Positions 32,903 through 58,120 of a stretch of DNA of 64,000 nt are shown one piece after another. A model generated the notes under the pieces. It did not search any database. It saw only the letters and a program-made list of their open reading frames with translations, and had not been told where the DNA came from. Each line of letters opens with the position of its first letter. Position 1 is the first letter of the stretch. Origin of the DNA: an uncultured Candidatus Saccharibacteria bacterium (lineage in GTDB: Bacteria; Patescibacteriota; WWE3; UBA101185; UBA10185); NCBI GenBank assembly GCA_964510435.1, contig CAZEBU010000001.1:52627-116626 (forward strand), written 5' to 3'. Both the position numbers and the translations under genes were made by a program.

Positions 32903-32906
32903 AATT

Positions 32907-33173: not shown

Positions 33174-33191
33174 GTTCAGTAGTTAAATGGA

Positions 33192-33763: not shown

Positions 33764-34180
33764 TTATACTTTTTGATTGAGTTTTGCGATTGCTTTCTCC
33801 AAAGCAGCACTGAGCTTAGTTTCTATAACTCCTGCTATTTCCTTAATTTGTTCATTATCGCTAAACCCCAGCACACTTGTTGGTTTCATAAAACCAACTT
33901 TGACCTCTCCAGAATCCTCAAAAACAACTACGTTGCATGGAAGTAGGGCGCCTATTTCGGGTTCTGAAAGTAGTGCTCTATGTGCAAACTTTGGATTACA
34001 TGCACCAAGAATTATGTATTTTGAGTAATCTATATTGAGCTTATTCTTTATAATTTCCTGCACATTTATTTCTGTGATAATACCAAAATCTTCATTTTTT
34101 AGACTCTCTCTTATTGCCTTTTCCGTCTCTTCAAAACCGGAACCAGAAATTTGTATAACTGTATATGCTGCTTTTGTCAT
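33764..34180 (-). CDS. DUF302-domain protein
   Basis: The ILGACNPKFA...LPCNVVV pattern. Confidence 0.55.
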   Translation of the reverse strand: MTKAAYTVIQISGSGFEETEKAIRESLKNEDFGIITEINVQEIIKNKLNIDYSKYIILGACNPKFAHRALLSEPEIGALLPCNVVVFEDSGEVKVGFMKPTSVLGFSDNEQIKEIAGVIETKLSAALEKAIAKLNQKV

Positions 34181-34181
34181 C

Positions 34182-34454
34182 TTACGAACTCCTTTGCCTT
34201 TTTTTATAAATTTCTATTAATTCTTTTATAGCCTTATCTTTTTGGTTACTAAACTGCTCTGAAACATGAATTTGTAGATGCCTTTCAAGAACCACAACGT
34301 CGACGCTCTTAAGAGAGTTCTGAATTGCATAACTAAGATCCAATACATCAATACAATAAGCCTCCTCGTTGATCATTTTGGCAAGGCCATCCAATTGACC
34401 CTTAATTATATTGATTCTCCTTTCAATATCTTTTTTATTATATTCATCTTCCAT
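34182..34454 (-). CDS. csoR: CsoR/RcnR-family metal-sensing transcriptional repressor
   Basis: RINIIKGQLDGLAKMINEEAYCIDVLDLSYAIQNSLKSV...H, a 90-aa DUF156 fold. Confidence 0.7.
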   Translation of the reverse strand: MEDEYNKKDIERRINIIKGQLDGLAKMINEEAYCIDVLDLSYAIQNSLKSVDVVVLERHLQIHVSEQFSNQKDKAIKELIEIYKKRQRSS

Positions 34455-34465
34455 ATATATACCCT

Positions 34466-34482
34466 ATACCCCCCCGTGGTAT
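34466..34482. promoter_or_regulatory. candidate CsoR operator (ATACC-N7-GGTAT pseudo-palindrome)
   Basis: ATACCCCCCCGTGGTAT sits 12 nt upstream of the csoR start. CsoR operators are GC-rich TACC...GGTA palindromes. Confidence 0.45.
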
Positions 34483-34546
34483 CCGTCAAGAGCTTTTTTA
34501 TTACCATTATTAGAGAGGTTTCCTTATTTATAGCCTGGAGAATGTA

Positions 34547-34574
34547 GTTGTCCGTGACCGCCATGCTCGACCAG
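34547..34574 (+). repeat. junction repeat, copy 3 (divergent 5' half)
   Basis: GTTGTCCGTGACCGCCATGCTCGACCAG. It is followed by a hairpin with a T-run at 34577-34616 and by GGCAGGACGAGAA at 34622-34634. Confidence 0.45.
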
Positions 34575-34812
34575 AAAAAGCTAGATATCACCGCAGGTGG
34601 TAGCTAGCTTTTTTTAGTTGTGGCAGGACGAGAATAATTCGGACTGAACGAATGAAATGAGTGAAGGAGAGGGGCTAATGCTTTCGTAATAGACGCAGAA
34701 AATAATTTCCTAATAATTCAAAAGAATATTTATGATGATGGTCAATTGGACTATGCAAACAAAGCCATTAAAGATTTTGAATCTCAAGGGCTCCTAAACT
34801 AAGTTCATAAAA

Positions 34813-34823
34813 GTTACAAACAT
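34813..34823 (+). repeat. junction repeat half-site (5' half only)
   Basis: AAAAGTTACAAACAT, immediately 3' of the PIN gene. Confidence 0.25.
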
Positions 34824-34831
34824 TCTCCACC

Positions 34832-35281
34832 CTAAATTTTATAGTTAGCACGTATAAATTGCATGAAATCACCTGGGCTTATAACAATAATTCCAAAATC
34901 TCCTTTTATCACATCTAGTTTAAAGTGTTTTAAATTATAAGTAATCAGAAATCTAGCCTTTGTAATTACAGCTCCGGCTAAAACATGACTATCATACATA
35001 TCCAACAAATAACTTCCATATTTTTCTACTAAGGATGCTGGAGAACCGTGCAAATTAGTAATTTCAAATTCCTTATTGAATGACTTGGCTAAAACCTTGT
35101 TTGGTAGACTCAGTCTTTTTGCAACACCTCTAGTTTCTTTTAAAGATAGTTGTGTAGTAAGTTTAGTAACTTTTAGATCGTTGATAATAAAGTGAGCGGC
35201 ACCTTTTCTAGAAAAAAGAGACGAAACTATCACATCTGTATCCGGGAAGATTCTTATATCTTCAAGCTTATTTACTCTCAT
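34832..35281 (-). CDS. PIN-domain (PIN_3-like) toxin component
   Basis: N-terminal DTDVIVSSL and C-terminal D..D.HVLAGAVITKARFLITYNLKHF. Confidence 0.45.
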   Translation of the reverse strand: MRVNKLEDIRIFPDTDVIVSSLFSRKGAAHFIINDLKVTKLTTQLSLKETRGVAKRLSLPNKVLAKSFNKEFEITNLHGSPASLVEKYGSYLLDMYDSHVLAGAVITKARFLITYNLKHFKLDVIKGDFGIIVISPGDFMQFIRANYKI

Positions 35282-35543
35282 AAGCTTTAGACCTAAGTTC
35301 TTTTATAGTCTTTTGTATCTTCTCAATGTTTTTAAGATCCTCCTGCTCAGCTTGATATATATCGTAATCCAAACCTGTAAAGGCAAAATAGATAGACTTG
35401 GCTGGAATCCTATAAACACTGCCAAACCTTTTAGCAATAATTTCACCTCGCCTAATTAAATCGTAAACGGTATTCTTGTTAAGCTGAAGTATTTCTGCTA
35501 CTTCAACGGGGGTATAAGTTTTTGTATATAACATCTTACTCAT
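35268..35543 (-). CDS. excisionase-family helix-turn-helix DNA-binding protein (probable antitoxin of the PIN gene)
   Basis: TPVEVAEILQLNKNTVYDLIRRGEI. It overlaps the PIN gene by 14 nt. Confidence 0.55.
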   Translation of the reverse strand: MSKMLYTKTYTPVEVAEILQLNKNTVYDLIRRGEIIAKRFGSVYRIPAKSIYFAFTGLDYDIYQAEQEDLKNIEKIQKTIKELRSKAYESK

Positions 35544-35618
35544 TATGACCAGACTATACTATACAGTATAGAACTTGTCAATTACGTACTGATTAGGTAG
35601 GCTCGCACTCATCAAATG

Positions 35619-35648
35619 GTTGCAAACGTCGGTTACTATGCTCGACCA
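35619..35648 (+). repeat. junction repeat, copy 4
   Basis: GTTGCAAACGTCGGTTACTATGCTCGACCA. Confidence 0.55.
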
Positions 35649-35695
35649 GAAATCCCTATTGACGTCGAACAAACTCATATATACAATGTATACAC

Positions 35696-35962
35696 ATGTA
35701 CTTTGATTGGGATGGAAAAAAGAGCAAGAAACTCCAATCAATACGCAACATTAGTTTTGAGCAAATACTGGTAGAGATTAATAATGGCAACTTATTAGAC
35801 GTTATTGAGAATCCAAATCAAAAAAAGTATCCCAATCAGTTGATATACATAGTGAGATCGGGAAACTACGTTTATTTAGTTCCTTTTGTGATGGATAAAG
35901 AAAAGATTCTCTTGAAAACAATTTATCCTAGCAGAAAGTTTAAGAGATTATATGAAAAATAA
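35696..35962 (+). CDS. brnT: BrnT-family (DUF497) ribonuclease toxin
   Basis: MYFDWDGKKSKK...ISFEQI...YIVRSGNYVYLVPFV...KTIYPSRKFKRLYEK matches the BrnT pattern. Confidence 0.6.
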   Translation: MYFDWDGKKSKKLQSIRNISFEQILVEINNGNLLDVIENPNQKKYPNQLIYIVRSGNYVYLVPFVMDKEKILLKTIYPSRKFKRLYEK

Positions 35963-36248
35963 TAAAAACATGTATAAACCACTTGACGAATACGAAAAAG
36001 ATCTACAGGAAACCATTGATAAGGTGGATTCTTTTAAAAGACCTAAAAACTATAAGAAGGTTTTAGCGAAAGCATTAATAGCTGCAAACAACACCTCTTC
36101 AAAATCCAAGACTCTTAATATCCGTATTGCTGAAAAGGACTTAATTATGCTTAAAACTAAAGCTGAAAAGGTTGGTATGCCTTATCATACGCTTATTAAT
36201 ACTGTTTTACACCAGTATGCTAAGGGAGAATTAAAGGTCGATATTTAA
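35952..36248 (+). CDS. brnA: BrnA antitoxin (RHH)
   Basis: KTLNIRIAEKDLIMLKTKAEKVGMPYHTLINTVLHQYAKGELKV. It overlaps brnT by 11 nt. Confidence 0.6.
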   Translation: MKNNKNMYKPLDEYEKDLQETIDKVDSFKRPKNYKKVLAKALIAANNTSSKSKTLNIRIAEKDLIMLKTKAEKVGMPYHTLINTVLHQYAKGELKVDI

Positions 36249-36253
36249 AAAAA

Positions 36254-36283
36254 GTTCAAAACATCGTTCCTTATAGTCGACCA
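36254..36283 (+). repeat. junction repeat, copy 5
   Basis: GTTCAAAACATCGTTCCTTATAGTCGACCA, starting 6 nt after the brnA stop. Confidence 0.6.
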
Positions 36284-36394
36284 TGAAATTATGTAATCAC
36301 ATTTATGTGGTTAATTAACAAACTTTATAGCGGGTGATGGGTTTAGAAACCGTACTAGGCTCAAAGGGGGCATCCTGAGCGGAAATGCTGAAGA

Positions 36395-36712
36395 TCAAAC
36401 AACTTTAACTCCATTTTTCTTTATCTCAGTCACAAGCGGGTTGTACTTGTTATTAAAATCTTCAACCAAAAACGGGTGAGGCTCAATTAAATCACTTATA
36501 TCACGTCTAAGATGCATAAGTCTTACTCTCTCTCCATGCAAATCGTCGCTAAAGTCGGCTGAGACTATGCCTACATCCAAATCACTCCACTTGCTATTAG
36601 TACCCTTTACTCTTGATCCAAAAGCATACATTTCCTGCACGTTTATACCATTACTTTCAAGGACAGCTCTATATTCATTAAGAATGTCTAAATATTCTTG
36701 TGTTAAACTCAT
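36395..36712 (-). CDS. minimal nucleotidyltransferase (MNT) antitoxin
   Basis: FGSRVKGTNSKWSDLDVGIV, the GS...DxD motif. Confidence 0.65.
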   Translation of the reverse strand: MSLTQEYLDILNEYRAVLESNGINVQEMYAFGSRVKGTNSKWSDLDVGIVSADFSDDLHGERVRLMHLRRDISDLIEPHPFLVEDFNNKYNPLVTEIKKNGVKVV

Positions 36713-37092
36713 AGTGACCCTTCAACCCATGTATACAAATCTATGGAAACCTTTACCCATTTTTCAGCGTATTCTTTTGTAGCTTTTTTATAAAAACTTA
36801 GTTTGTAGTCATCATAACGTGTATCTAAGTTGAAGGTAGTTATTTCGTTAAGTCTTTCTTCAGTTTTGTTAGTGACTCCTAAATCAGCTTCTTTTGCCAA
36901 TCGTTTTAAATCGTGCGTGTATGGGATTTCCTTTCCCTGACTAACTAATAGCCCCTTTAATAGTTTTTCAAGAGATAGTTGCCAAAAAAACAAACACCAA
37001 TGATAGTAACCAAGGTCAAACATACCTTGTGCAGCATTTTTACTCTCTTCTGAGCCATCAATCCAATATTTTAAAGCTTCTTCCCTTTTCAT
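36709..37092 (-). CDS. HEPN-domain protein (partner of the MNT)
   Basis: LSLEKLLKGLLVSQGKEIPYTHDLKRL, with a 4-nt overlap with the MNT gene. Confidence 0.6.
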   Translation of the reverse strand: MKREEALKYWIDGSEESKNAAQGMFDLGYYHWCLFFWQLSLEKLLKGLLVSQGKEIPYTHDLKRLAKEADLGVTNKTEERLNEITTFNLDTRYDDYKLSFYKKATKEYAEKWVKVSIDLYTWVEGSL

Positions 37093-37180
37093 ATAGGCAT
37101 TATACTAGATTGAAAGTTGCAAACATAATAGTCCGCTATAGACAACACAAAATTATACCTGAAGGGCATGACACGAAGTA

Positions 37181-37210
37181 GTGGCAAACGTCGTTTACTA
37201 TGGTCGACCA
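37181..37210 (+). repeat. junction repeat, copy 6
   Basis: GTGGCAAACGTCGTTTACTATGGTCGACCA. Confidence 0.55.
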
Positions 37211-37233
37211 TGGAAGTTTGTTAATATTAGGAT

Positions 37234-37968
37234 GTGAACAAAAAAGGTTTTTCTGCTATTTTAGTTTTAACGCTGGTAGTTGTTACCGTAACTGTTTTTG
37301 TTCTTTACACAATACACTCTTCAAAGAAATCGACAGCACAGTTTTTTTCAACTCAAAAGCTTGCATACAGTAGTAATGGTATGGCCAGAGTGTACGATTT
37401 TTCGTCAAATAATCAGCTAGATCTGAAGATATTGTCAGTTACAAGCTTTTTGTGGTCCCATAATGGAAAAGAACTTGCATTAATGGTTCAAGGGGAATAC
37501 GATCCCGGCAAACTTACGTTCATACCTATTAAAAGAGTTTATGCAACAACTGCAGGATTTAATTACATGGTCTATTTAGTGGATCTGGAAACTGGGATCA
37601 CAACCTTGCTATTGGATAAAGTTTTTGGAAAAGTTCGGTGGTCAAAAGACACTACAGGACTATATTTTACAGAACAGTACCGTCAAGGAAGGCCGCTTAT
37701 CCTGGGAAATCAATCAGGCTTGCCACCAGACCAAGAGGAATATTTTTTCATATCTTTGGATGGAGAAAAGAGGAAAACAACAAAAAAAGAATTTGACGAA
37801 ACTTCTTACTTTAATACAGCAAGTTCACTAAACTCCCCCGATGGGAAACTCATCATAGAACTGTCTGATAACATTGTGGGGGATAAACAAATGAAAATAA
37901 AAGACCAAAACAACAATATAGTTGTTGAGCTTACAGGGCAACTCCCTGTATGGGCACCTATCCTGTAA
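37234..37968 (+). CDS. membrane-anchored protein with PD40/TolB-like beta-propeller repeats
   Basis: An N-terminal TM helix and repeated W/SxDGKxL motifs. Confidence 0.35.
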   Translation: MNKKGFSAILVLTLVVVTVTVFVLYTIHSSKKSTAQFFSTQKLAYSSNGMARVYDFSSNNQLDLKILSVTSFLWSHNGKELALMVQGEYDPGKLTFIPIKRVYATTAGFNYMVYLVDLETGITTLLLDKVFGKVRWSKDTTGLYFTEQYRQGRPLILGNQSGLPPDQEEYFFISLDGEKRKTTKKEFDETSYFNTASSLNSPDGKLIIELSDNIVGDKQMKIKDQNNNIVVELTGQLPVWAPIL

Positions 37969-37992
37969 AACTTCGTTCCGTATAGTCGAGCA
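37965..37992 (+). repeat. junction repeat, copy 7 (overlaps the stop codon of the preceding gene)
   Basis: GTAAAACTTCGTTCCGTATAGTCGAGCA. Confidence 0.5.
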
Positions 37993-37996
37993 GATT

Positions 37997-39418
37997 TTAA
38001 ATAATATGCTTTAACCTATTCAGACTATAAGCATACCCTAATTCGTTGTTGTTAAAATTGCTGGTAGAAAGAACTCTTAAACCAATTTGAAGTTGACAGA
38101 TCCTATGGCGTTCCCAATAATTCGATACATTTAATCCCCTATCTTTTATGTAACTAAGATATTTTTTGCTAAAATCGTCATCTTTGTGCCAAAAGTCATA
38201 CCACGCCGGATCATACACAAAATCACCAATCATCGAATTTGCCCAATCTAGTACAGTAACCTGCTTTGTTTCCGGATTATAAATTACATCAGCATAACCA
38301 TAATCACTGTGGACTAAATATGCATCTTTTAACTGGGTGTATTTTAACAATATCTTCATCTCGGTTAATGCAGACTTAAATATATTTTTGTGCTCTACAC
38401 CATCTTTGAGTAGTTGTTTATATTTTTTCTCATGCAAAAATTTCAATAAAAAATCTTCCCAATTTTGATAGAGAGCGCTTCTTTTCTTATTCCAAGACCC
38501 AAAACCCCCGAACTTATCTATTCGCGCAGTGTGTATTTTATATAAGGTCTGTATAACATAGGGTAAGGCTGTGGAATACTCATCTTTATCCAAATCATAT
38601 AAAACACGTCCCAAAACTCTTTCTGATATGGCGTAATAAACTTTTTTACTATATCTACCTAAATTAGTAACCTCGGGAATAGAAAAATATTCAGAGAAAT
38701 CCTCATAAGCAAGTTTATCTTTGTAGAGATTTTCATAATTTTTGCTGAACCTAACAACATACTCTTTTTCTTTATGCACGAATGTGAAAGTGTTGGTTGT
38801 AGAACCATACTTTATTTCTTCAATATTATTTGCTTCTATGTTCAGTTCTTTTCTGAGAAAATTCATTGCGTCACTTTTCCCAACTGAAGGTTTATTGCCA
38901 ACGGTATTAGCATAGGTTTCAATGTGCGGCAGAATTCCTACATAACACAATAAATAACTATCCTTAGAAATTGCACCTGTTTCTATGCCAACCAAGAACG
39001 CTATGATCCTATGTAGTCCGTCTACGAGCTGCCTATTATTCTTTTCATATGACTCATTGAGAACTAAAGCCGGATTAACTCTTCTGCCAATACTAAAAGA
39101 TTCAACGATATTTTCTATTTTGACTACAAAATTAAGGTCAACATTCTTAATTTCTTTATAATTATTACGATAGTTTGCAGCCATTTCAGCTGCCGAAAAT
39201 TGTGAATAGTTTTTTGTCAGGTAGTAAGATGTTGTGTTTGGAGTTTTTTTAGGATCAGACCAAAGAAGGGTACTAACTAAATTGTTGTAGAAAAACCTTT
39301 TTGAACCTAACCAACTATACTTAATAATCATATCGGATACATCCCAACCTCTTTTTTCTTTCCCAGCTTCCACCTTTTCGAAAACATCCAAAATCACACT
39401 ACGTGGGACATACTCCAT
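37997..39418 (-). CDS. two-domain protein: N-terminal ParB/Srx-like domain fused to an APH/choline-kinase-like phosphotransferase domain
   Basis: The N-terminal part has QLVDGLHRIIAFL (cf. the ParB DGHHR motif). The C-terminal part has VHSDYGYADVIY...VLDWANS, the kinase catalytic loop and DFG-equivalent. Confidence 0.45.
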   Translation of the reverse strand: MEYVPRSVILDVFEKVEAGKEKRGWDVSDMIIKYSWLGSKRFFYNNLVSTLLWSDPKKTPNTTSYYLTKNYSQFSAAEMAANYRNNYKEIKNVDLNFVVKIENIVESFSIGRRVNPALVLNESYEKNNRQLVDGLHRIIAFLVGIETGAISKDSYLLCYVGILPHIETYANTVGNKPSVGKSDAMNFLRKELNIEANNIEEIKYGSTTNTFTFVHKEKEYVVRFSKNYENLYKDKLAYEDFSEYFSIPEVTNLGRYSKKVYYAISERVLGRVLYDLDKDEYSTALPYVIQTLYKIHTARIDKFGGFGSWNKKRSALYQNWEDFLLKFLHEKKYKQLLKDGVEHKNIFKSALTEMKILLKYTQLKDAYLVHSDYGYADVIYNPETKQVTVLDWANSMIGDFVYDPAWYDFWHKDDDFSKKYLSYIKDRGLNVSNYWERHRICQLQIGLRVLSTSNFNNNELGYAYSLNRLKHII

Positions 39419-39453
39419 GGCTACATACTAACAGTCCTTGTATCAACAGAAAA

Positions 39454-39492
39454 GTTCAAAACATCGTTCCGTCGAGTCGGCCACCCCGACCA
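39454..39492 (+). repeat. junction repeat copy 8 fused to a tRNA-Pro 3'-end-like sequence
   Basis: GTTCAAAACATCGTTCC followed by GTCGAGTCGGCCACCCCGACCA. The final 20 nt differ by 1-2 nt from the 3' ends of both tRNA-Pro genes. Confidence 0.55.
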
Positions 39493-39507
39493 TGATAAAA
39501 TCAACTC

Positions 39508-39840
39508 ATGATAATTACCCTCGACAGAAAAATAACACCCGAGGAGTTTGAGAAAGCAAGGGAAGTTTACAATGACTATATAAAAACCGTCATCGATGTG
39601 GAAAGAAATATACTAGTAGTCGGCGGCGAGTACCATATAGATTGTGAAGAAGTTTTGCTTAAAACGGGAAGTAAACTTGAAAACCTTTACGGTGGGGGTT
39701 ATAAGGTCAGCACAAAGGAGGTTGAGTATATGGCAATGAGTAATTACAAACCTGCTTTAGGAAAAACAACCTATGAAATAATGGACAAAGAAATTCGTGA
39801 CAAATTATATAAGTTAACAAAGAAGTACTTGGAAATATGA
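39508..39840 (+). CDS. hypothetical protein
   Basis: ORF in a cassette. Confidence 0.3.
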   Translation: MIITLDRKITPEEFEKAREVYNDYIKTVIDVERNILVVGGEYHIDCEEVLLKTGSKLENLYGGGYKVSTKEVEYMAMSNYKPALGKTTYEIMDKEIRDKLYKLTKKYLEI

Positions 39841-40115
39841 ACAGAGATAAACAATTCATTATAAACTCAATAAAGATGGATCTTCATAGGGTCGTAACAG
39901 CCGCGGGTGATATAACAAAAAAAGCGCCCACAGAATCGATAAGAACATTCATGGAACATGCAGATAAAGACTTTGATAAAACCGAATTAGATGAAAGGGA
40001 AAAAAGTATCAGACAGGAACTAAAAGCGCTTGCAAATAATCTGGAGGCCTTGTCAGATCCACACACCAGGCTGAGATGGACCGAGGATGTCATGACTGCC
40101 CGGTGCAGGTTGTGA
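39837..40115 (+). CDS. hypothetical protein
   Basis: ORF with a 4-nt overlap with the upstream gene. Confidence 0.3.
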   Translation: MNRDKQFIINSIKMDLHRVVTAAGDITKKAPTESIRTFMEHADKDFDKTELDEREKSIRQELKALANNLEALSDPHTRLRWTEDVMTARCRL

Positions 40116-40121
40116 TAAAGC

Positions 40122-40147
40122 GCAAAACTTCGTTCCGTATAGTTAAC
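40122..40147 (+). repeat. junction repeat, copy 9 (3' half degenerate)
   Basis: GCAAAACTTCGTTCCGTATAGTTAAC. Confidence 0.45.
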
Positions 40148-40191
40148 TGTAATCTTTGGTCGCTGTCACAACAAAAATAACTGAGTTAAAA

Positions 40192-50009: not shown

Positions 50010-50090
50010 ACTTCGTAATATATCTGACTTCGTTTGATGTATTACTTCGTAATATATCTGACTTCGTTTGATGTATTACTTCGTAATATA
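50010..50090. repeat. tandem direct repeat, 2.4 x 34 bp (ACTTCGTAATATATCTGACTTCGTTTGATGTATT)
   Basis: Units at 50010-50043 and 50044-50077, partial at 50078-50090. Each unit holds two ACTTCGT half-repeats and TTGATG/TAATAT promoter-like hexamers. Confidence 0.8.
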
Positions 50091-50104: not shown

Positions 50105-50170
50105 TCGGGGTGTATAACTCGCTTCGCTCGTTAGCGATCGTAGCTAACGCTCCGATATCTAATGCTCAGT
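50105..50170 (+). promoter_or_regulatory. conserved tRNA-Pro 5' leader (copy 2)
   Basis: See 26916-26980. Confidence 0.5.
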
Positions 50171-50188
50171 AGGAAAAGTACCTCTCTG

Positions 50189-50264
50189 CGGGGTGTAGCT
50201 CAGTTGGAAGAGTGCACGATTCGGGTTCGTGAGGCCGTCGGTTCGAGTCCGACCACCCCGACCA
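50189..50264 (+). tRNA. tRNA-Pro (anticodon CGG), CCA encoded
   Basis: Acceptor CGGGGTG/CACCCCG; anticodon stem CACGA/TCGTG with loop UUCGGGU; T-arm GTCGG-TTCGAGT-CCGAC. Confidence 0.85.
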
Positions 50265-50531
50265 AACTTGAAAAATCAGTATTTGAAAGCCCCAATATTT
50301 TTTCCAATAGTAACTAATTCGAACGGTTTAACACTTTTCAATTTTGCATTTACCAGTAAGTTATTTTTCTTAAGCAGTACAAAAGACTAGTATAGAGAGG
50401 TATCAAATCTTCCACTTCTTATATGAAGATTCCTATTTTCACTTTTAACTTGTTCAAAAAAAATACATTCAGAAATTATGTGCGTGCTAAAATAGTTTTG
50501 CTAAGAATCATATTGAGTATTAGCTACAAAG

Positions 50532-52286
50532 ATGCCACATTCTAAAAGGGGGAAATTAGGAATAATGCTAAAAAGCAGAACTTTATACATTTTTTTAATA
50601 ATATCCTTAGTACTCACATATCTACTAGCAAAAGCGCGCTACACAGATTTATTAACTTATTCTTTGACTCAGAGAACTTTTATCTATAATGAGGTGCTTG
50701 AATCAGAAAGCCAAATATCGTCTTTGTTATTTGAAAATTTCAATTGTGGATTCAAAGAAGCATCCACCTCATGTTTCTTGTCATATAGACTGTATATACT
50801 GGCACTCTTGGCCCTTGGTCTAACCAACATATTTATTTTTACTAGATATATAGGGCGTTTTAGAAAAAGAGTTATTCTAATATTAATAGTAGCATCTAAC
50901 TTATATCTACTTTTTCTTACATATCTTATTGCAGTTACTTCCGAAATCTATTTAATTGAAGAGCTATCAAATCAAGCTAACGGGGATTTATCTTCATATA
51001 TCCAAGAGGTTAGAAAGGGCGATTTCGTTAAAACTAATCCAAATTTTAGCTTATTAGATTTATCTAAAGATATCGAAATAATTGATGTTAATCCAAAAGA
51101 GGAGGGCTTTCTTGAGTATGCAGGTGTCGAGCTTAATGAAGAAAACACACTGTATAAATCTGTAGTACTGCCCTGGTATGCATATTCGGCTCACTCGTAT
51201 CCGCTTATTGATAGTCTCTCTTTTGAAATCATACTAATAGGGAACAGGGTGATAGTTGTAAACAGCATCAGTAAAGAAAGTCTTGATTTTATTGCACCTA
51301 AATTAGTAAAAAGTGTAATTACCAAAAACTATCCTGAAGTTCTCTTAGAACAAAACGTAGAGTTTTTCATTCTCGACGTTGAAGAATACAATAAGGTACT
51401 CAACAAAGAAATCGATGAAGCAAAAGCAGAAGCTCACAAAACAATTTCCAACATTAACTACAAAATAAGTCAGGTAAATGACGCTATCGCTAATAATAAC
51501 GAGATAATAAACAATCTACAGAACAATCTTAATGAACTGGATGAGGTGTATGAAGAATGGAAGGAAGAAGTTGAAAATGAATATGATTACTACTGTAGTG
51601 GTATCTATTACTCACAAAACCGAAGCTGGTGTGAAAAAACCAGAGATGTTATCGATGAGGGTAAAGACCAAGCAGAAAAAGATAAACAAAATCTAATAAA
51701 GGATGCAAATCTCGCAAGGCAGTACAACGCTGAGTGGGCATTAACGCTCAACGAATACCACTCATATTTGAAAAGTTTACAGGACTACTTAGAGCAGATA
51801 GAAAAAGATCCAGTTACTCCTGAGCTTCAAGCTGGAGTCACGTATAGCGAAGGTGGAATAAAAAAGATATATATTAAATACTACGGATCCAAAGAACATT
51901 TGTTCTCATACTATACACACGTCGCACTACATGAGTATTTACATATCCTTTCCAACAGTGATGGCGGTGGTTGGCCTACTGGATTAACAGAAGGTATGAC
52001 AGACTACTTAGCTGATGAATTAAATAACGGAATCCTCAAGTATAGGTATAAACCAGGGGATCTAATTGGTTATCAAAACGAAGTTGAGATACTGAAAGAT
52101 ATACTTGAAGATGTTAACGAAGATCGGTTTATACACATGTATTTCTTTGATATGAGTGAAGAAACTTTGGAAGATTTCATCGAGGGCGCCTACCAAAACC
52201 TAGATTACGACAAGTTCTCAATTTTAATTGACGAAATATATTATTCTCAACAATTGAACAGTAACAACCTGCTAGATATTCTATAA
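50532..52286 (+). CDS. membrane protein with a coiled-coil region and a C-terminal HExxH (putative zinc-metallopeptidase-like) domain
   Basis: N-terminal TM helices, VALHEYLHIL followed by GLTEGMTDY, and 584 aa. Confidence 0.35.
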   Translation: MPHSKRGKLGIMLKSRTLYIFLIISLVLTYLLAKARYTDLLTYSLTQRTFIYNEVLESESQISSLLFENFNCGFKEASTSCFLSYRLYILALLALGLTNIFIFTRYIGRFRKRVILILIVASNLYLLFLTYLIAVTSEIYLIEELSNQANGDLSSYIQEVRKGDFVKTNPNFSLLDLSKDIEIIDVNPKEEGFLEYAGVELNEENTLYKSVVLPWYAYSAHSYPLIDSLSFEIILIGNRVIVVNSISKESLDFIAPKLVKSVITKNYPEVLLEQNVEFFILDVEEYNKVLNKEIDEAKAEAHKTISNINYKISQVNDAIANNNEIINNLQNNLNELDEVYEEWKEEVENEYDYYCSGIYYSQNRSWCEKTRDVIDEGKDQAEKDKQNLIKDANLARQYNAEWALTLNEYHSYLKSLQDYLEQIEKDPVTPELQAGVTYSEGGIKKIYIKYYGSKEHLFSYYTHVALHEYLHILSNSDGGGWPTGLTEGMTDYLADELNNGILKYRYKPGDLIGYQNEVEILKDILEDVNEDRFIHMYFFDMSEETLEDFIEGAYQNLDYDKFSILIDEIYYSQQLNSNNLLDIL

Positions 52287-52301
52287 GTAATTTATAGGTC
52301 T

Positions 52302-52850
52302 ATGTCAAGCTCAGAAGAACAAAAGACATATCTGGAAAGCATTGCTAAAGAGGTTCTATCAAAGTACAGACGACCAGATAGTGTGTTAACCCATTCTCCT
52401 AGTATTGGAAACTATCATGAAAGAATTTTACGTAATGTTATAAAAGAATACTTGCCTAACTCCTTTAATGTAGGTGAAGGTTTTATTATTAACAACAACG
52501 GTGACGCCAGTCATCAAATAGATACCCTTGTCGTAGACAGTTTAGACCCTAGGTCATATGTTTACAAAGAGAAGGGTTTCTTTATAGTTTCAAATATCGC
52601 TGTCGTAAACTTCAGCGAAGTAAAAACATACTGCAATAAAAATGATTTTATAAAATCTTTCCACAAACTAATAAGAACTTCTTTGCTACTAGGTGACGAC
52701 CACTCGTCTCGAGCTACTTCATTTATATTCTGCTATGACGCTAGAGTGAGTGCAGAAACATTCAAAAGCTGGCCTGATAATGCTATAAGTAAATTAGAAA
52801 ACATGATGTTACTAACTCGTGGAATTATCCAGATTTTATCTTTTGCTTGA
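52302..52850 (+). CDS. hypothetical protein, possible PD-(D/E)xK nuclease fold
   Basis: QIDTLVVD...NFSEVK spacing. Confidence 0.25.
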   Translation: MSSSEEQKTYLESIAKEVLSKYRRPDSVLTHSPSIGNYHERILRNVIKEYLPNSFNVGEGFIINNNGDASHQIDTLVVDSLDPRSYVYKEKGFFIVSNIAVVNFSEVKTYCNKNDFIKSFHKLIRTSLLLGDDHSSRATSFIFCYDARVSAETFKSWPDNAISKLENMMLLTRGIIQILSFA

Positions 52851-53068
52851 AAAAAAATGTCATGCTTGAAAGAAAACCTATAAGAGGTAGTTTTTACATA
52901 TTTTTACACTATTGATACAAACAAAAAATCTAATCTCGTAAAAGAGATTATAATGCAGAGTGTTTTCCAATGTATAACCAATGAGTGTGGACGAACGAGA
53001 ACGCAGCAGGGCATACGACTACCTGGTCTTAGCTAAAATACGCACTTGGTAACTTTTAGTGAACCAAA

Positions 53069-53599
53069 ATGTATAATTTAACAGTGGATGAATCTAATCT
53101 CTCAACTACATTAGACATTACGAATATGCTAATAGGTCGCTTAGATCTCTTTATCAATTTCGTTGGAGTGATTTCTACAATATCTCTGGGTTTTATAGCT
53201 TTCCTTGCTTGGAAACACAATGAGCTGAGAAAGCAAGCAGAAAATGAGGTGGAAAAGGCTAAGAAACTAGGTAATGAGATTTCTATCTTAAACACAAGTT
53301 TCAATGAATTACTAGAAAAACAACGTGAACAAGCCTTAAAAATTGATGAATTATTCAACACAGCGGATAGAGACGTAGAGGAAATTAAAGAGTTGGCTCA
53401 AAGTATAAGTACAAGCGATGAGGAAATAACAAAGATTAAAAATAAGCTAAATGAAAAGATTCAGATCGTAGAAAAGACGCTTAGTAGCCTTGCTACCACA
53501 TCTAGATACACTCCTGGAGATGTACCTACTGAAACAAGTAAGGATTCGGGTTTCGATGTATTAAGAAGCTTTCTATGGCCAGATAAAGATAAGAAGTAA
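53069..53599 (+). CDS. hypothetical TM and coiled-coil protein
   Basis: ORF. Confidence 0.3.
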   Translation: MYNLTVDESNLSTTLDITNMLIGRLDLFINFVGVISTISLGFIAFLAWKHNELRKQAENEVEKAKKLGNEISILNTSFNELLEKQREQALKIDELFNTADRDVEEIKELAQSISTSDEEITKIKNKLNEKIQIVEKTLSSLATTSRYTPGDVPTETSKDSGFDVLRSFLWPDKDKK

Positions 53600-53701
53600 G
53601 AGTTGTAAAACTATAGAAAAGTGCTGAAAATTCAGTGTATAGCATGCCTTAAGCAGATAGAGCAAAAACCCTAAAACGTATGGTTCAGCAAGCACTATGA
53701 A

Positions 53702-53733
53702 GTTTAAAACATCGTTCTGTATAGTCGACTATA
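53702..53733 (+). repeat. junction repeat, copy 10
   Basis: GTTTAAAACATCGTTCTGTATAGTCGACTATA, with a perfect palindrome TATAGTCGACTATA. Confidence 0.55.
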
Positions 53734-54303
53734 CTAGAAACTTAACCAACTGAGAATTAAGCTCAGTAAGGTCTGTTGCACATCCACTACCATTCCGCTC
53801 TCATCCAGTAGAAGCTTCTTTTCAATCTTTACCGGTATTATAAAGAATAGCTTCTCATCTTCAAATACAATAACAACGTCATCGCCCACGGGAATAAATT
53901 CACTAACATCAATATCCTCAATGTTAACTCCGGATCTTACCGATTTTTCATCAACAGATACTTCTGACACAACGGAGGGTGTGCTGACTTCGTCTATAGA
54001 AGGTGTACTAACCTCATCCACAGAGGGGGTGCTGACTTCATCCACCGATGGTGTGCTGACTTCATCGATAGAGGGTGTACTAACCTCATCGACGGATGGA
54101 GTACTTACCTCATCGTCGCCATTGGAAGCCTCAGAGGATCCGCTGCTCTCATCAGCGTATGTGGTAGATAATGAACCATTGCTCACTAACACACTAACTA
54201 CTATGGCTAAAATTAATATACCTATAAAAGACAGAAGAATTTTTTCTGTTTTAGGCAGTTTTTTCATAGTATTAAATATCCCATATAATGGTTTAAATTT
54301 CAA
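53734..54303 (-). CDS. secreted protein with seven tandem VDEVSTPS(I/V) octapeptide repeats
   Basis: An N-terminal signal anchor, with 24-bp DNA tandem repeats at about 53972-54117. Confidence 0.4.
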   Translation of the reverse strand: MKFKPLYGIFNTMKKLPKTEKILLSFIGILILAIVVSVLVSNGSLSTTYADESSGSSEASNGDDEVSTPSVDEVSTPSIDEVSTPSVDEVSTPSVDEVSTPSIDEVSTPSVVSEVSVDEKSVRSGVNIEDIDVSEFIPVGDDVVIVFEDEKLFFIIPVKIEKKLLLDESGMVVDVQQTLLSLILSWLSF

Positions 54304-54964
54304 CTTCGCTAATCACGGCGTGTTTATTGATGTTTAAATAAGCCAAGATACCAAAACCAAAAACCTCAAGACTTTCCTCAAGAAGCCGAAAAAGATGTTC
54401 AACGGTAGAACTGCACCCAGGATCAAAGCAGAACACCAAAGTTTTACTTTTCCCTACCCACCCATCTATCATATCCAACAGCAAGGACACGGCCAAGACA
54501 AAAACTGCTGTGTATAAAAGCCTTCTTTCCTTGGGAGAGGCTTTTTTCCAAAGTAAAAATATGAGAGCACCTAAACTAAAAATTAATAATGGTAGATAGA
54601 GAATAACCCAACTGTAACTTGGAAAGGATGCTAAAAAAGGAGAGAGTTCTTGTGCCGCAGCGCTGAAACGCTCATGAAAATAGGTAGCATCGTCCATACT
54701 GAAAAATAAAAATGTTAGTGACAAAAAATACCAGATTATTCTCTTGGATCTCATATACACAGTGGCACTTGATAGAGCTATCAAAAGCAAGGCAATAACA
54801 CTCACCCAAGTCAACGGGGTCTGTTCTCTAGTTGCCAGAAAGATCTCCCCAAAGATCGTTTCGGGATAAAAAAAGTATGTAAGAATATCCAATAGCAAGA
54901 GCGCTACTGTTAATAACAGACCCAACCTAAAAATTTTATTTACAAAAGACTTTGTAAAATACAT
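54293..54964 (-). CDS. polytopic membrane protein, hypothetical
   Basis: Five or six TM helices. Confidence 0.3.
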   Translation of the reverse strand: MYFTKSFVNKIFRLGLLLTVALLLLDILTYFFYPETIFGEIFLATREQTPLTWVSVIALLLIALSSATVYMRSKRIIWYFLSLTFLFFSMDDATYFHERFSAAAQELSPFLASFPSYSWVILYLPLLIFSLGALIFLLWKKASPKERRLLYTAVFVLAVSLLLDMIDGWVGKSKTLVFCFDPGCSSTVEHLFRLLEESLEVFGFGILAYLNINKHAVISEVEI

Positions 54965-55089
54965 TTATAATTAGTATTTCATTCTCGTTTGGGGTTGTAA
55001 ATAAGCGGTTTTATCACAATACCAACTTGGTACGTTAGTGAAATTGTTCCTTGGGATAGAATAAAAACCGGAGATACTGTATTAACAAA

Positions 55090-55764
55090 CTAGGGCAAAA
55101 GACTTAATATCTCTGTGGCACGTTTTGGGTTACCCCTGCCAACAGGAAAATAACAGGGGATAACATTATAACTTTTACAATTGAGTTTAAATTTATAAAG
55201 TTTAATTTGACCTTCGGCGTTGACAGCATCGTAGTAATCACCTAGTTTTATTTTTTCACCAACAAGGGCATTAAAAGGTATAAGACCAAAAGTCACGATA
55301 TATTCCGGATCAACTAGCTCGATTTCCTTTTGCAGGACGGGTAAAAACGTTTTTATCTTGTCATTATTCGGAAGGGCTGCGTCCTCTCCGGTCCACTTCA
55401 CTATGTTTGTAAAATAAAACCCTCTCTCAGTCAGGTGGCTGTACACCTTGTCTGCAAAAGTCGTATCCCACTTTTTTCTTTTTGTTATTTCACTTAACAA
55501 ACTCTCATCAAGATGGCCTGCGTTTTTAAATATTTTCCAAATGTATTTTGTACCTGTCCAAGGTCTTCTTTTTCCTGTCCAGTTAGGGTCGGAGGAAATA
55601 TTTCTATAGGTAGGGTTAATAAACACAAACATATATCTAGGTTTGTGCAACTTACCACCTGCCATAATAGGTTTTTGTTTGCTTTCAGGAAAATATTCAG
55701 AATGTAGTATTTTGGTATACGTCCAAAGTTCCTCCAAGGTTTTTATGTGACTTAATTCTTTCAT
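55090..55764 (-). CDS. uracil-DNA glycosylase superfamily protein
   Basis: KPRYMFVFINPT, YFTNIVKW and a C-terminal CYFPVGRGNP resemble the family 4/5 UDG motifs. Confidence 0.45.
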   Translation of the reverse strand: MKELSHIKTLEELWTYTKILHSEYFPESKQKPIMAGGKLHKPRYMFVFINPTYRNISSDPNWTGKRRPWTGTKYIWKIFKNAGHLDESLLSEITKRKKWDTTFADKVYSHLTERGFYFTNIVKWTGEDAALPNNDKIKTFLPVLQKEIELVDPEYIVTFGLIPFNALVGEKIKLGDYYDAVNAEGQIKLYKFKLNCKSYNVIPCYFPVGRGNPKRATEILSLLP

Positions 55765-55798
55765 GCAGCATTATGTTAACATTCGAAGTCGTAACAAA

Positions 55799-55830
55799 GT
55801 TACAAACATCGTCCTGGGTAGTCGACTATA
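55799..55830 (+). repeat. junction repeat, copy 11
   Basis: GTTACAAACATCGTCCTGGGTAGTCGACTATA. Confidence 0.55.
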
Positions 55831-55875
55831 GCTTGGCAGACAGACCCTTGTGGTCTAGCTGGCAAGATATTGTGG

Positions 55876-55937
55876 TGGGAGGACGAGAACTCCATGTGCG
55901 AGCGAAGCGAGCACACTTCGAGTCCGGCCACCCTCCC
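55876..55937 (+). repeat. tRNA-3'-half-like element: GGGAGGACGAGAA...TTCGAGTCCGGCCACCCTCCC
   Basis: The same GGNRGGACGAGAA...GCGAGCG.AGCGAGC layout as at 28899-29001. The 5' GGGAGG pairs with the 3' CCTCCC, and there is a T-loop-like TTCGAGTCC. Confidence 0.45.
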
Positions 55938-55956
55938 TACATTGTACATCTAAAAG

Positions 55957-56289
55957 ATGTACACTAATTTACCGCTCATGTACAATGCAGACGTGGGCTA
56001 TTCAATAAGATTTGATGAGAAAAAAAATCAATTATTGAAAGCTTCCCGTGATGTTTGCTTCGATGGTGTTGTAGACGCAATTGAGCAAAACAGACTTGTG
56101 GGTAACATAAAACACTTTAAAAAAGACAAATACCCAAATCGGTATCTGTTTTTAGTTGAGGTAAATAACTATATTTACATAGTTCCTTACCTAAAGGACA
56201 TAAAGAAAAAAGAACTATATTTAAAAACTGTGTATCCAAGTAGAAAGTTTACAAAGATGTATAGGAGAAATAATGAAAAAGAAAAATAA
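55957..56289 (+). CDS. brnT: BrnT-family (DUF497) toxin, second copy
   Basis: YSIRFDEKKNQLLKASRDVCFD...YIYIVPYL...KTVYPSRKFTKMYRR. Confidence 0.55.
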   Translation: MYTNLPLMYNADVGYSIRFDEKKNQLLKASRDVCFDGVVDAIEQNRLVGNIKHFKKDKYPNRYLFLVEVNNYIYIVPYLKDIKKKELYLKTVYPSRKFTKMYRRNNEKEK

Positions 56290-56584
56290 TAAAAAAAATC
56301 TATTTGACGATTTGGTTCTAGACACAAATGAACAAGAACTGGAAGATTCTATTCCTAAGCATATGGCTTTTCCGAAAATTTCCGAAAAAGAGAGGGCTGA
56401 TTTTGCACAAGCCGCTTCGAGACATAAAGAGCTTAAAAGATCAAAGAGGATCAATATTCGTATAAACAACCAGGATTTGGCAAAAGTCAAAGCTAAAGCC
56501 AAAGTAAATAACATCCCCTATCAAACTTTAATAAGTTCTTTGGTTCACAAGTATGCCGAAGGGGATTTAAAAGTAACAGTTTAG
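56273..56584 (+). CDS. brnA: BrnA antitoxin, second copy
   Basis: RINIRINNQDLAKVKAKAKVNNIPYQTLISSLVHKYAEGDLKV. Confidence 0.6.
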   Translation: MKKKNNKKNLFDDLVLDTNEQELEDSIPKHMAFPKISEKERADFAQAASRHKELKRSKRINIRINNQDLAKVKAKAKVNNIPYQTLISSLVHKYAEGDLKVTV

Positions 56585-56605
56585 TTTCCCAGATCGTATA
56601 AAAAG

Positions 56606-56634
56606 CTGCAAACGTCGTGTACTATGGTCGACCA
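56606..56634 (+). repeat. junction repeat, copy 12
   Basis: GCTGCAAACGTCGTGTACTATGGTCGACCA, 22 nt after the brnA stop. Confidence 0.6.
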
Positions 56635-56653
56635 AAAACACAATAGAGTCCGG

Positions 56654-58120
56654 TCAATTTTCAGAGGTCTCTCTATACCATACATAAACCTTATTCATGG
56701 TACGGCCCTCATCATTTTTTAACTTCAATACCTCCTTCTTATTCCTGTACTTACCAAATCTTGTGTCGGCGACAAAGCTGGCGGGATCTTTGACTGCAAA
56801 AATGAACATCTTATCCGAGCCGTCTTTATCAAGCTCAAGATAATACTCTGCAATCTTCTTGTTTTCGTTTGTATCAAAAGTAAATTCTTCATAGTCGGGA
56901 TACATTTTTCTAAGTTCTATTGCTGACTCTTTAAAGTAGCGGTTAATTGGAAATCCAATCATATATCGGGACGAATTTTCATGTGTGTATTCCACCGTTT
57001 CCCACTGGTTAAAAAAAGTTTCGCGTTGCCAGGGATATTCTTTTTCCAAATCAACAAACAACATATAACTCTGATATGTAAAAAACACTACCAATACAAT
57101 GATCGGAACTCCAAAAATGACATACCCAACTTTTTTTGTTTTTTCTAAAGCCCAGTCAAGTGCCAATGAAAAGCTAATAAACAAAGGGGTTAAAACAACG
57201 TAAATATGAGTTCCGGAACTTTTAATGAAAAACAAAAACACTAGCACTATCGTCACCAACCACAAGTACTCAAAACGCTCCTTAATTATCGAAAATACTG
57301 AAAACACAAGCGCAAAAACAAAGAAATTTAAAAACAGAAACGGGTTGTACAAAGTTATCAGATATCTATAATTTTCAAGTCTTTCCTGCAAGGACATTTC
57401 ACCTACTGCTCCAGTCCTACCTAACAAATAGACTGCGGTTCCGGTTTCTCCTGAGGCTAAGATATAGGGAATTATATATAAAACAAGTAGCGGTGCTACA
57501 CTAAGCAAAAATGGTAAAACATGGCTTTTTCTTAGTCCTCTAAAAAGATACACCAAAATGATCGGTCCGATAAATACCATGTCCCAATGAAAATAAAAAC
57601 CTAGAGAAAATGTCAACGCACCTAATATCAACGTCCCAAGCCTGCTATTTTTAGAATATAAGTGGAACAAATAAAGAGAGCTTACTGAAAATAGCATCAC
57701 AAAGGAATGATATTGAACTATCTTGCCCAGACCAACGGTAAATCCGTTTACAGCAAATAACAGCGCTCCCGCCACGGCGGTGAGAGGATTAGCGGTGAGT
57801 CTATTGATATATAAAAATAAAATTAAGGTGCTAAAAAAACCCGCTAAAGTGTAAGGAAAACGCATAATAGCTTCGTTATCTAGATCTGCCCCCAATACAA
57901 AAAGTATTTGTGCTACTTGGTATTGAAGTGGGGGCCTTTTGGTTTTGAAAATAAACTCTTTCGAAAAAGTATTAGTGCCTTTTTTTATATAGGTCAAAGT
58001 ACTTGCTTCGTCTTTTGCATAGCCATAAGCACCTATGTTAATTCTCAAAAGTCCGGAAAAAACCACCAACACAAACACGCATATGTAAAATATGTACGAA
58101 CTTCTCTTTGACATACTCAA
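56654..58120 (-). CDS. polytopic membrane glycosyltransferase (GT39/GT83, ArnT/PMT-like)
   Basis: About 12 TM helices and 488 aa. Confidence 0.4.
   Translation of the reverse strand: MSMSKRSSYIFYICVFVLVVFSGLLRINIGAYGYAKDEASTLTYIKKGTNTFSKEFIFKTKRPPLQYQVAQILFVLGADLDNEAIMRFPYTLAGFFSTLILFLYINRLTANPLTAVAGALLFAVNGFTVGLGKIVQYHSFVMLFSVSSLYLFHLYSKNSRLGTLILGALTFSLGFYFHWDMVFIGPIILVYLFRGLRKSHVLPFLLSVAPLLVLYIIPYILASGETGTAVYLLGRTGAVGEMSLQERLENYRYLITLYNPFLFLNFFVFALVFSVFSIIKERFEYLWLVTIVLVFLFFIKSSGTHIYVVLTPLFISFSLALDWALEKTKKVGYVIFGVPIIVLVVFFTYQSYMLFVDLEKEYPWQRETFFNQWETVEYTHENSSRYMIGFPINRYFKESAIELRKMYPDYEEFTFDTNENKKIAEYYLELDKDGSDKMFIFAVKDPASFVADTRFGKYRNKKEVLKLKNDEGRTMNKVYVWYRETSEN

Follow-up and report, generated by a model that had tools for sequence, protein, structure and literature searches.

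The window analysed here is a stretch of 64,000 nucleotides (64 kb) from contig CAZEBU010000001.1 of an uncultured Candidatus Saccharibacteria bacterium (assembly GCA_964510435.1), and it carries two arrays of small gene cassettes, island 1 and island 2, which lie 23 kb apart in the same genome behind tRNA-Pro genes and are punctuated by a 36-nt repeat, here called R. According to ARAGORN and Rfam the window has two tRNA genes, both tRNA-Pro and both on the + strand: tRNA-Pro(GGG) at 27000-27076, which anchors island 1, and tRNA-Pro(CGG) at 50189-50264, which anchors island 2 and whose 3' end (...CCCCGACCA) is the proposed attachment (B) half-site. An original prediction made from this DNA took them for two tRNA-Pro paralogs. 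Both are tRNA-Pro genes, but the first reads GGG, the two are 80% identical, and as different isoacceptors they are not simple paralogous copies. The G+C content is 0.33-0.36 in the islands compared with 0.40-0.43 in their flanks.

Island 2 (50265-56634, 6.4 kb) consists of three units that end in R and one segment that lacks it. Directly behind the tRNA, a decayed C-terminus of a large serine recombinase (LSR) at 50265-50450 (-), broken by a stop codon and a frameshift, reads toward and into tRNA-Pro(CGG). The cargo of unit 1 (50532-53599, +) comprises three genes, for a 584-aa membrane/coiled-coil protein belonging to no family (50532-52286, +), a DUF6602 protein (52302-52850, +) and a 176-aa coiled-coil protein (53069-53599, +), and the unit ends in R copy c12 (53696-53731, +). 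Unit 2 (cargo 53734-55764, -) encodes a 189-aa repeat protein, a 223-aa membrane protein and a family-4-like uracil-DNA glycosylase (55090-55764, -) and ends in R copy c13 (55793-55828, +). The open reading frame (ORF) of the 189-aa protein (53734-54303, -) contains a coding repeat at 53972-54114 with a 24-nt period and at least four copies, and it has no family match. Then follow a hairpin and a GC-rich stretch, module 2, which closes with a degenerate, displaced 3' end of tRNA-Pro (55829-55939, +), and a toxin-antitoxin (TA) cassette (55957-56584, +) before R copy c14 (56599-56634, +), which closes the last unit. Beyond the island lies a conserved flank with a PMT_2 glycosyltransferase gene (56654-58120, -). 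The three repeats predicted at 53702, 55799 and 56606 are thus all present, at 53696-53731, 55793-55828 and 56599-56634 in their full 36-nt register; all are on the + strand and 25-29 of their 36 positions are identical to the consensus.

Island 1 is a 13-kb array with a grammar like that of island 2. The C-terminal remnant of an LSR, of about 80 codons (26996-27289, -), overlaps the 3' end of tRNA-Pro(GGG), and the array has eight good and three degenerate copies of R. Copies on the + strand lie at 28268-28303, 28812-28847, 35613-35648, 36248-36283, 37175-37210, 37957-37992 and 40114-40149, degenerate ones at 34535-34573, 34810-34835 and 37113-37150 (+), and 39448-39492 (+) is a hybrid in which the left half of R runs into a tRNA 3' end. 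The cargo includes DUF3800, NUDIX, an Mrr-like nuclease, a copper P-type ATPase with CsoR and DUF302, PIN-HTH, a TA pair (35696-36248), HEPN-nucleotidyltransferase (HEPN-NT), an APH-like kinase and DUF5674 with a 92-aa partner. Units in the window measure 0.6-5.6 kb. Across the arrays, cassette genes are found in both orientations relative to R, and several units have promoter-like sequences of their own.

The repeat is specific both in sequence and in location. A degenerate R pattern matches the window four times, compared with 0.00 expected from 100 shuffles, and an nhmmer profile of the window copies places R solely in 28268-40149 and 53696-56634 across the 64 kb, always on the + strand. 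An exact-pattern scan of one genome per species gave 17 loci (here and below, loci are numbered with L), 12 with a full-length R and 5 matching the pattern alone; L001, L002, L003, L005 and L008 were rejected as chance matches that are not R. The matches in L048 and L052 are chance too and fall inside a tyrosyl-tRNA synthetase gene, in a locus that happened to hold a full LSR by tRNA-Tyr. All 12 full-length loci are in assemblies of the candidate phyla radiation (CPR, Patescibacteria), namely WWE3, Saccharibacteria, Microgenomates, unclassified Patescibacteria and two short contigs binned elsewhere, and with a metagenome scan added there are about 40 distinct copies, every one in a CPR/Patescibacteria contig. 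The CPR-wide consensus is AAAATAGTTGCAAACATCGTCTGCTATAGTCGACCA. Its information content drops from 1.4-1.8 bits to less than 0.4 right after ...CCA, and positions 1-10 and 34-35, which were outside the search pattern, are conserved too. This edge lies just after CGACCA, the last six bases of tRNA-Pro. Since CCCGACCA is the terminus of every tRNA-Pro gene read across the loci, R and the tRNA have their last six bases in common; a G72-A73-CCA 3' end is a typical feature of tRNA-Pro.

Wherever there is enough upstream sequence, R is preceded on the same strand by a tRNA-Pro gene (TGG, GGG or CGG), as in L010, L013, L016, L018, L021, L027, L029, L037, L047, L051, L053, L054, L056, L065 and both window loci. 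In L037, six copies are found within 6.5 kb behind tRNA-Pro(TGG). The expectation that the repeat would not turn up at unrelated, tRNA-free loci has therefore been borne out, as the window copies are confined to the two tRNA-Pro islands and those of other genomes lie downstream of tRNA-Pro at every locus with enough upstream sequence. Copies within one genome share a subtype, with types A and B in the window and a common downstream promoter-like stretch at the copies of L037.

Some further features are associated with R or resemble it. A conserved stretch of about 40 nt (AAGCATAATCgGGTATATAAAC-N13-GTGATA) lies to the left of R in L004, L009, L011, L013, L015, L016, L017 and L031; it is common to several phyla and absent at all window copies. 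Another repeat family (L026, L032, L034, L035, L043, L046 and L049, with a G+C of 45-50%) has a similar core, CAAACATCGTCTTTTATAGTCGACTGTG, after a hairpin GGAAGCTGGGA...CCCAGCCTCCC, and most contig pairs of that family have a common stretch of 85-500 nt, which reaches about 1 kb in three pairs. Positions 1-15 of R (for example 28812-28826), AAAATAGTTGCAAAC, may resemble the resume-codon region of the Escherichia coli tmRNA, AAAATAGTCGCAAAC; no tmRNA gene was detected in the window by ARAGORN. When the window and five loci were scanned with Rfam, tRNAs were the only matches, and R, module 2 and the conserved block upstream of the window tRNAs stayed unmatched.

The units between the repeats behave as cassettes when genomes are compared. 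DUF5674 and its 92-aa partner form a cassette present in four arrays (the window, L038, L037 and L054). In three of these arrays its first bases, TGATAAAAT, adjoin ...CGACCA or ...CAACCA, and in all four it ends with R directly at the stop codon of the second gene, the R of L038 being degenerate; in the window its left neighbour is a tRNA-type end (...CCCCGACCA) and not R. The order of cassettes is permuted between L010 (tRNA-A-R-B-R) and L023 (B-R-A-R), and a WWE3 relative has, at its orthologous tRNA-Pro(GGG) locus, a single AbiE cassette with R, compared with the 13-kb array of the window. In another relative, L072, the order is R, NUDIX, an R-like sequence, a TA pair, R and a PMT_2-like gene, which joins cassette types that are kept in two separate islands in the window. 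The copper P-type ATPase unit is a recurrent array cargo (29961-32231 in the window, 742-4242 in L004 and 1748-4210 in L011), found in unrelated CPR genomes and in both orientations relative to R.

The TA pairs precede R in both islands, with the toxin gene before the antitoxin gene and the two genes overlapping. In island 2, the toxin (55978-56289, +, from the public gene call, with 55957 as an alternative start) has a predicted RelE-superfamily-like fold, and the antitoxin (56273-56584, +) is of a ribbon-helix-helix (RHH)/CopG-BrnA-like type. The distance of 22 nt given in the original prediction between this pair and the following repeat holds from the start GCTGCAAAC; to the full-register repeat it is 14 nt. 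The island 1 pair is also followed by a repeat as claimed, though without the gap, because it adjoins its full-register R directly. The two toxins were rightly described as only moderately similar (36% identity; the antitoxins have 40%), and by that same argument the word "duplicated" used for the cassette in the prediction's heading is wrong. The view that the cassettes were acquired independently, rather than by recent duplication, is correct in excluding a duplication. A caveat applies to the island 2 cassette: L072 carries a homologous TA cassette (toxin 76% identical) in the matching outermost position beside a like flanking gene, so the island 2 cassette looks old and vertically inherited in this lineage and not recently acquired.

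The names BrnT and BrnA, also taken from the prediction, are weakly supported, since no curated family threshold is reached. Toxin 1 scores 17.6 bits against a threshold of 34.5 for BrnT_toxin (PF04365) and matches DUF4258 better, toxin 2 has no match, NCBIfam gave no match, and no BrnT emerged from a profile search against the PDB. Both antitoxins fall short of the BrnA and CopG_antitoxin thresholds (PF14384, 20.4 bits versus 26.1; NF047399, 17.4 versus 60; CopG_antitoxin, 26.5 versus 28). In the structure model of the toxin (predicted local distance difference test score 88.5), the best PDB matches are YoeB, HigB and RelE, all of them weak (E at least 0.01, template modelling score up to 0.59). 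"BrnTA-like" is therefore fit as a description and not as a family assignment. A homologous TA pair in L069 (1300-1790 and 2370-2520; G+C 0.46) is flanked by palindromes resembling repetitive extragenic palindromes (REP-like; GTCATTGCGAACGAAGTGA...GCAATC) and not by R.

A candidate enzyme is indicated by what adjoins the tRNA genes. The short minus-strand frames abutting both window tRNAs resemble each other and an ORF in a like position in L016, which together with its frameshifted upstream part reads as a zinc ribbon and a coiled coil. In tblastx the remnant at 50265-50450 matches that at 26996-27289 (72% identity at the DNA level), and in tblastn the latter matches L016. A word-indexed protein search with the L016 fragment recovered only the fragment itself, and a sequence search of the LSR tail against the PDB was uninformative. 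An exhaustive HMMER search yielded 1725 relatives, of which the full-length ones have 530-570 aa. P0007, P0010, P0015 and others among them have Resolvase, Recombinase and Zn_ribbon_recom domains, which identifies the relatives as large serine recombinases. A profile of 45 full-length LSRs, run against the window with hmmsearch, matches 26996-27289 (-) with E=1.2e-15 at positions 465-545 of 546 of the hidden Markov model (HMM), and the more decayed 50265-50450 remnant, at the right distance from its tRNA, gives a weak collinear match to HMM positions 478-520. The best NCBIfam match of the family is XisF, with 116 bits against a cut-off of 375. P0007 is not of the Ccr type, as it reaches 70.7 bits for CcrB (cut-off 900) and 52.8 for CcrA (cut-off 700).

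Intact members of this family show how the gene is placed. In nine of nine contexts (L052, L056-L061, L065 and L016), the LSR gene converges on a tRNA gene and overlaps its 3' end, so that the C-terminal residues of the protein are encoded by the antisense of the tRNA; the targets are tRNA-Pro (four times), Phe, Ala, Gln, Ile and Tyr. All four of the tRNA-Pro elements have an R-type site on the tRNA strand at their far end: L056, a 6.2-kb element with an intact 569-aa LSR (R at 5457-5422); L065, a 3.9-kb element with an LSR; L016; and L061, with an intact 537-aa LSR and a divergent R ending in CCCGACCA. The C-terminal tail of tRNA-Pro-type LSRs reads ...WSG[WR]. No R was found at the LSR elements of the other tRNAs. 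The tRNA end and R share only CGACCA (CCCGACCA in L061), and the intact-LSR loci L056-L060 lack both long tRNA-derived direct repeats and any downstream copy of at least 10 nt of the tRNA tail. One tandem junction is present in L061, where the R-like sequence reads ...CCCGACCA|TTTAAAAAACCAGCCC and is followed by the remnant of an older LSR, TTTAAAAAACCAGCCC being the sequence right after tRNA-Pro(GGG) in the window. This junction is exact after CCCGACCA, which indicates that a younger element was inserted precisely between the tRNA end and an older element.

Taken together, these observations make it probable that R is the conserved distal end of CPR integrative elements and cassettes which have been stacked at tRNA-Pro by an LSR, a process of tandem accretion. 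The suggestion in the original prediction that one mechanism targets tRNA-Pro loci is supported, and the mechanism can be named as a tRNA-Pro-specific LSR lineage. The elements would insert at the extreme 3' end of tRNA-Pro genes, and the LSR gene would occupy the element end nearer to the tRNA, in convergent orientation, and run into the tRNA gene. R would be the P-arm of attP, kept in attR-type junctions, and the LSR would recombine attP (the R arm, the core CGACCA and a P' arm overlapping the terminal part of the LSR gene) with the tRNA-Pro 3' end. A crossover within or at the edge of the CGACCA core would leave the tRNA intact, and with the conserved half of the target inside the tRNA the occupied site would stay open to repeated insertion. 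Each new unit might then land between the tRNA and the previous unit, and later decay of the recombinase genes would produce a one-directional array in which each unit ends in R. The youngest unit would be that beside the tRNA, the position at which both window islands have an LSR remnant, and the TA cassette by the PMT_2 flank would be the oldest and outermost unit of island 2, in agreement with L072. The small units without a recombinase may be decay products or have been mobilised in trans. We infer catalysis of integration and excision by the LSR, the position of the 2-bp crossover, the re-use of occupied sites and the mobilisation of small cassettes in trans from the arrangement of the sequences.

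Three of about 17 junctions are of the tRNA type and end in a displaced tRNA-Pro 3' end, all three starting at the T-loop. At 28981-29001 (+) the tRNA-Pro(GGG) 3' end is copied perfectly over 21 nt, from T-loop to CCA; at 39473-39492 (+) a copy is fused to the left half of R; and at 55918-55939 (+) there is a degenerate copy, TCGAGTCCGGCCACCCTCCCTA. Hybrids of the left half of R and a tRNA-Pro 3' end from the T-loop are seen at 39448-39492, at 34810-34835 and in L072 (2105-2142). Two of the three displaced ends are preceded by module 2, a GC-rich stretch of about 100 nt which follows R and a terminator-like hairpin, begins with an inverted copy of half of the tRNA T-arm and ends in the displaced tRNA-Pro 3' end. 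It is found at 28899-29001, 34620-34700 (truncated, without a tRNA end) and 55872-55939 and in L023 (188-300), and comparison of the window with L023 shows changes in its hairpin that appear to be compensatory. A 150-nt "module X" that ends like module 2 also occurs in L023, at 2-150 and 2098-2250.

Several points weigh against accretion by an LSR. Pfam scans of the window ORFs of about 110 aa or more and of smaller island ORFs found no recombinase, and there is no intact LSR in the 64 kb. When 641 ORFs of about 40 array loci were searched for motifs, neither a tyrosine nor a serine recombinase came up. Among the arrays found by R, LSR traces are limited to L016 and the two window arrays; the intact examples came from searching with the LSR itself, and that sample is therefore not independent. 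Scans of viral contigs with the R pattern and with P0007 gave nothing, and no free (circular) attP was seen. Canonical serine integrases recombine attP with attB only, at att sites with two inverted half-sites. An inverted copy of the distal R motif is not enriched after R (mean -5.1, compared with -3.8 for shuffles), and the possible inverted motif in the P' arm of the single elements L056 and L061 is a judgement by eye. Integration at an occupied site and capture of cassettes through one half-site would be unusual for serine integrases. Finally, the hybrid junctions and the T-loop starts suggest that some events had their crossover in the T-loop, which a crossover in CGACCA does not explain; they suggest a second kind of event or element.

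The strongest rival, though an unlikely one, is that R is a homology anchor or regulatory site, that cassettes are exchanged by RecA-dependent recombination at the 36-bp repeats after DNA uptake, and that an LSR delivered only the first element at each tRNA. Most arrays have no trace of a recombinase, no conserved half-site follows R, the cassettes are in both orientations, the R subtypes are alike within a genome, and the window encodes a type IV pilus/T2SSE ATPase that would fit DNA uptake, all of which is consistent with such exchange, and the small cassettes may in part have moved in this way. It does not account for an R that is nearly identical across CPR phyla, with a conservation edge at a single base that coincides with the tRNA-Pro terminus; an edge of this kind fits a crossover site recognised by a protein and not a homology tract. 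The L061 junction is likewise site-specific to the base, and 36 bp at 70-80% identity make a poor substrate for RecA.

It is less likely still that the arrays are classical tRNA islands of tyrosine integrases, similar to tycheposons, with R and the tRNA-like ends as att direct repeats in decay and with the integrase genes lost. Such islands would explain the three tRNA-Pro ends starting at the T-loop, including the perfect 21-nt repeat at 28981-29001, the hybrid R/tRNA junction at 39448-39492 and the conserved, arm-like module 2 beside tRNA-type ends, and they may account for a minority of events. However, neither the window nor the 641 ORFs of the array loci yielded a tyrosine recombinase domain or motif, and the surviving recombinase remnants are of the serine type. 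R shares just 6 bp with the tRNA and is itself conserved, which means that it is not a decaying tRNA copy.

An integron, or a cluster of attC sites lacking an integron integrase (CALIN), is very unlikely. The one-directional array of short cassettes, each closing with a conserved site and many carrying TA and defence genes, is reminiscent of one, but IntI is missing from the window and the array loci along with any other tyrosine recombinase. As DNA, R forms no meaningful hairpin (z-scores of +0.25 to +0.9 in four of the five copies tested and -3.0 in one), so that reading it as attC-like or as a terminator was dropped; it is conserved in sequence, the opposite of attC, and the genes are in both orientations with promoter-like sequences of their own. 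An even smaller likelihood attaches to exploitation of Xer/dif, as by integrative mobile elements exploiting Xer (IMEX) or pdif modules, R then being a dif-like site. Arrays that lack a recombinase of their own and a site length near that of dif would suit it, but not two arrays 23 kb apart in one genome, always at tRNA-Pro, in a window where the cumulative GC skew shows no inversion; by inspection the consensus has no XerC/XerD-like dyad, and the copies are all on one strand, unlike alternating pdif modules. A single segmental duplication with a duplicated brnTA is excluded for practical purposes, as the original prediction held, because in spite of similar tRNA flanks (72-94%) the blastn matches between the islands are limited to the tRNA and some 190 nt of its flanks (72% over 265 nt), to the short repeats and to 113 nt of weak similarity in the TA genes, all other cargo being entirely different, the TA proteins 36-40% identical and the tRNAs different isoacceptors.

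The surroundings of the tRNA genes are also conserved in part. Upstream of tRNA-Pro(CGG) lies a block (50105-50172, +) that starts with TCGGGGTGT, the first 9 nt of the tRNA, and it has a twin at tRNA-Pro(GGG) (26916-26998) with the same start; the two are 94% identical over 52 nt, which exceeds the 80% of the tRNAs themselves, and no such block was found 5' of tRNA-Pro in the other genomes read. A split tRNA, in which the upstream block would pair with module 2 via CTCGCTTCGCTCG/CGAGCGAAGCGAG, was considered and set aside because the acceptor halves mismatch in island 2 and the homologues are too few for covariation. The GC-rich motif CGAGCGAAGCGAG of the upstream block and module 2 resembles the REP-like palindromes of L069. 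Just 5' of the block of tRNA-Pro(CGG), a 34-nt unit is perfectly duplicated in tandem (50010-50077). The gene order TruB, methyltransferase, RDD protein and tRNA-Pro(GGG) is kept in a WWE3 relative with proteins 39-46% identical, which places the organism of the window near WWE3 bacteria. In this conserved non-island flank, 23990-24625 has a strong Pfam match (4.9e-48) to NpmA-type 16S rRNA (A1408) methyltransferases and is syntenic in the WWE3 relative L027.

A more far-reaching reading, which we regard as possible but doubtful together with its consequences, is that the arrays form a cassette-capture platform spanning CPR phyla, driven by an LSR lineage that needs one conserved half-site per partner and in this respect unlike integrons. 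The chromosome would contribute the last ~20 bp of a tRNA gene as its half-site and the incoming DNA the 36-bp R arm, and the occupied site would remain receptive. Cassettes of 0.6-2 kb with R and no recombinase could then be captured, stacked, reshuffled and exchanged between phyla in trans, and sister recombinases might have been retargeted to other tRNA 3' ends (Phe, Ala, Gln, Ile and Tyr). The genomes of CPR/Patescibacteria are tiny, and few ways in which these bacteria exchange genes have been recognised. Arrays at tRNA-Pro, common to WWE3, Saccharibacteria, Microgenomates and other CPR bacteria, would be a main site of their accessory genome, with TA modules, AbiE, HEPN-NT, nucleases, copper resistance and APH-like kinases as cargo, and they would explain variable regions that are hard to assemble in metagenome-derived CPR genomes. 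The lineage would also provide serine integrases in a natural series, each with a target in a tRNA gene that can be predicted. Its enzymes may accept an arbitrary sequence as one half-site, a property of interest in the current search for programmable large-insert integrases.

No description of R or of tRNA-Pro cassette arrays in CPR was found in the literature, the coverage of which was incomplete, so this is absence of evidence only. Among known systems, the staphylococcal cassette chromosome (SCC) has a comparable organisation: Ccr LSRs insert at the 3' end of a conserved host gene, the site is re-used, composite islands are formed and many units have no recombinase. The likeness lies in the LSR, in the 3' end of a conserved gene that is kept intact, in tandem units with a short junction repeat and in units without a recombinase (the window arrays, L037 and L061). 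In contrast to SCC, the target is tRNA-Pro instead of rlmH/orfX, the scores of the LSR come nowhere near the Ccr equivalog cut-offs, a single recombinase gene reads into the target, the host is a CPR bacterium and the units are much smaller (0.6-6 kb).

The tycheposons of Prochlorococcus are another system of this kind, and 27 of 937 elements carry an LSR instead of a tyrosine recombinase (bioRxiv 10.1101/2020.12.28.424599). In the tRNA islands of Prochlorococcus successive integrations push older elements outward, leaving degenerate elements and fragmented integrases among defence and adaptation cargo (bioRxiv 10.1101/2020.12.28.424599). The islands described here also appear to grow at a tRNA by successive integrations. 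Tycheposons, however, have partial tRNAs as junction repeats and usually depend on a tyrosine recombinase, whereas here there is an element-borne 36-nt arm with 6 bp common to the tRNA, and a serine recombinase.

With integrons the arrays have in common the single direction, a site at the 3' end of each cassette, the frequent TA pairs and cassettes that are shared and reordered between genomes; they differ in having no IntI, a conserved double-strand site instead of a folded attC, a tRNA anchor and genes in both orientations. The phage serine integrases phiC31, Bxb1 and A118, and XisF, resemble the enzyme in the combination of Resolvase, Recombinase and zinc ribbon domains with a coiled-coil tail and in the minimal identity between partner sites. 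What sets the present lineage apart from them is that the whole of it abuts different tRNA 3' ends (Pro, Phe, Ala, Gln, Ile and Tyr) and that an occupied site was apparently re-used in L061. By their defining features the arrays belong to none of SCC, tycheposons and integrons, and they are best filed among the serine-recombinase integrative elements.

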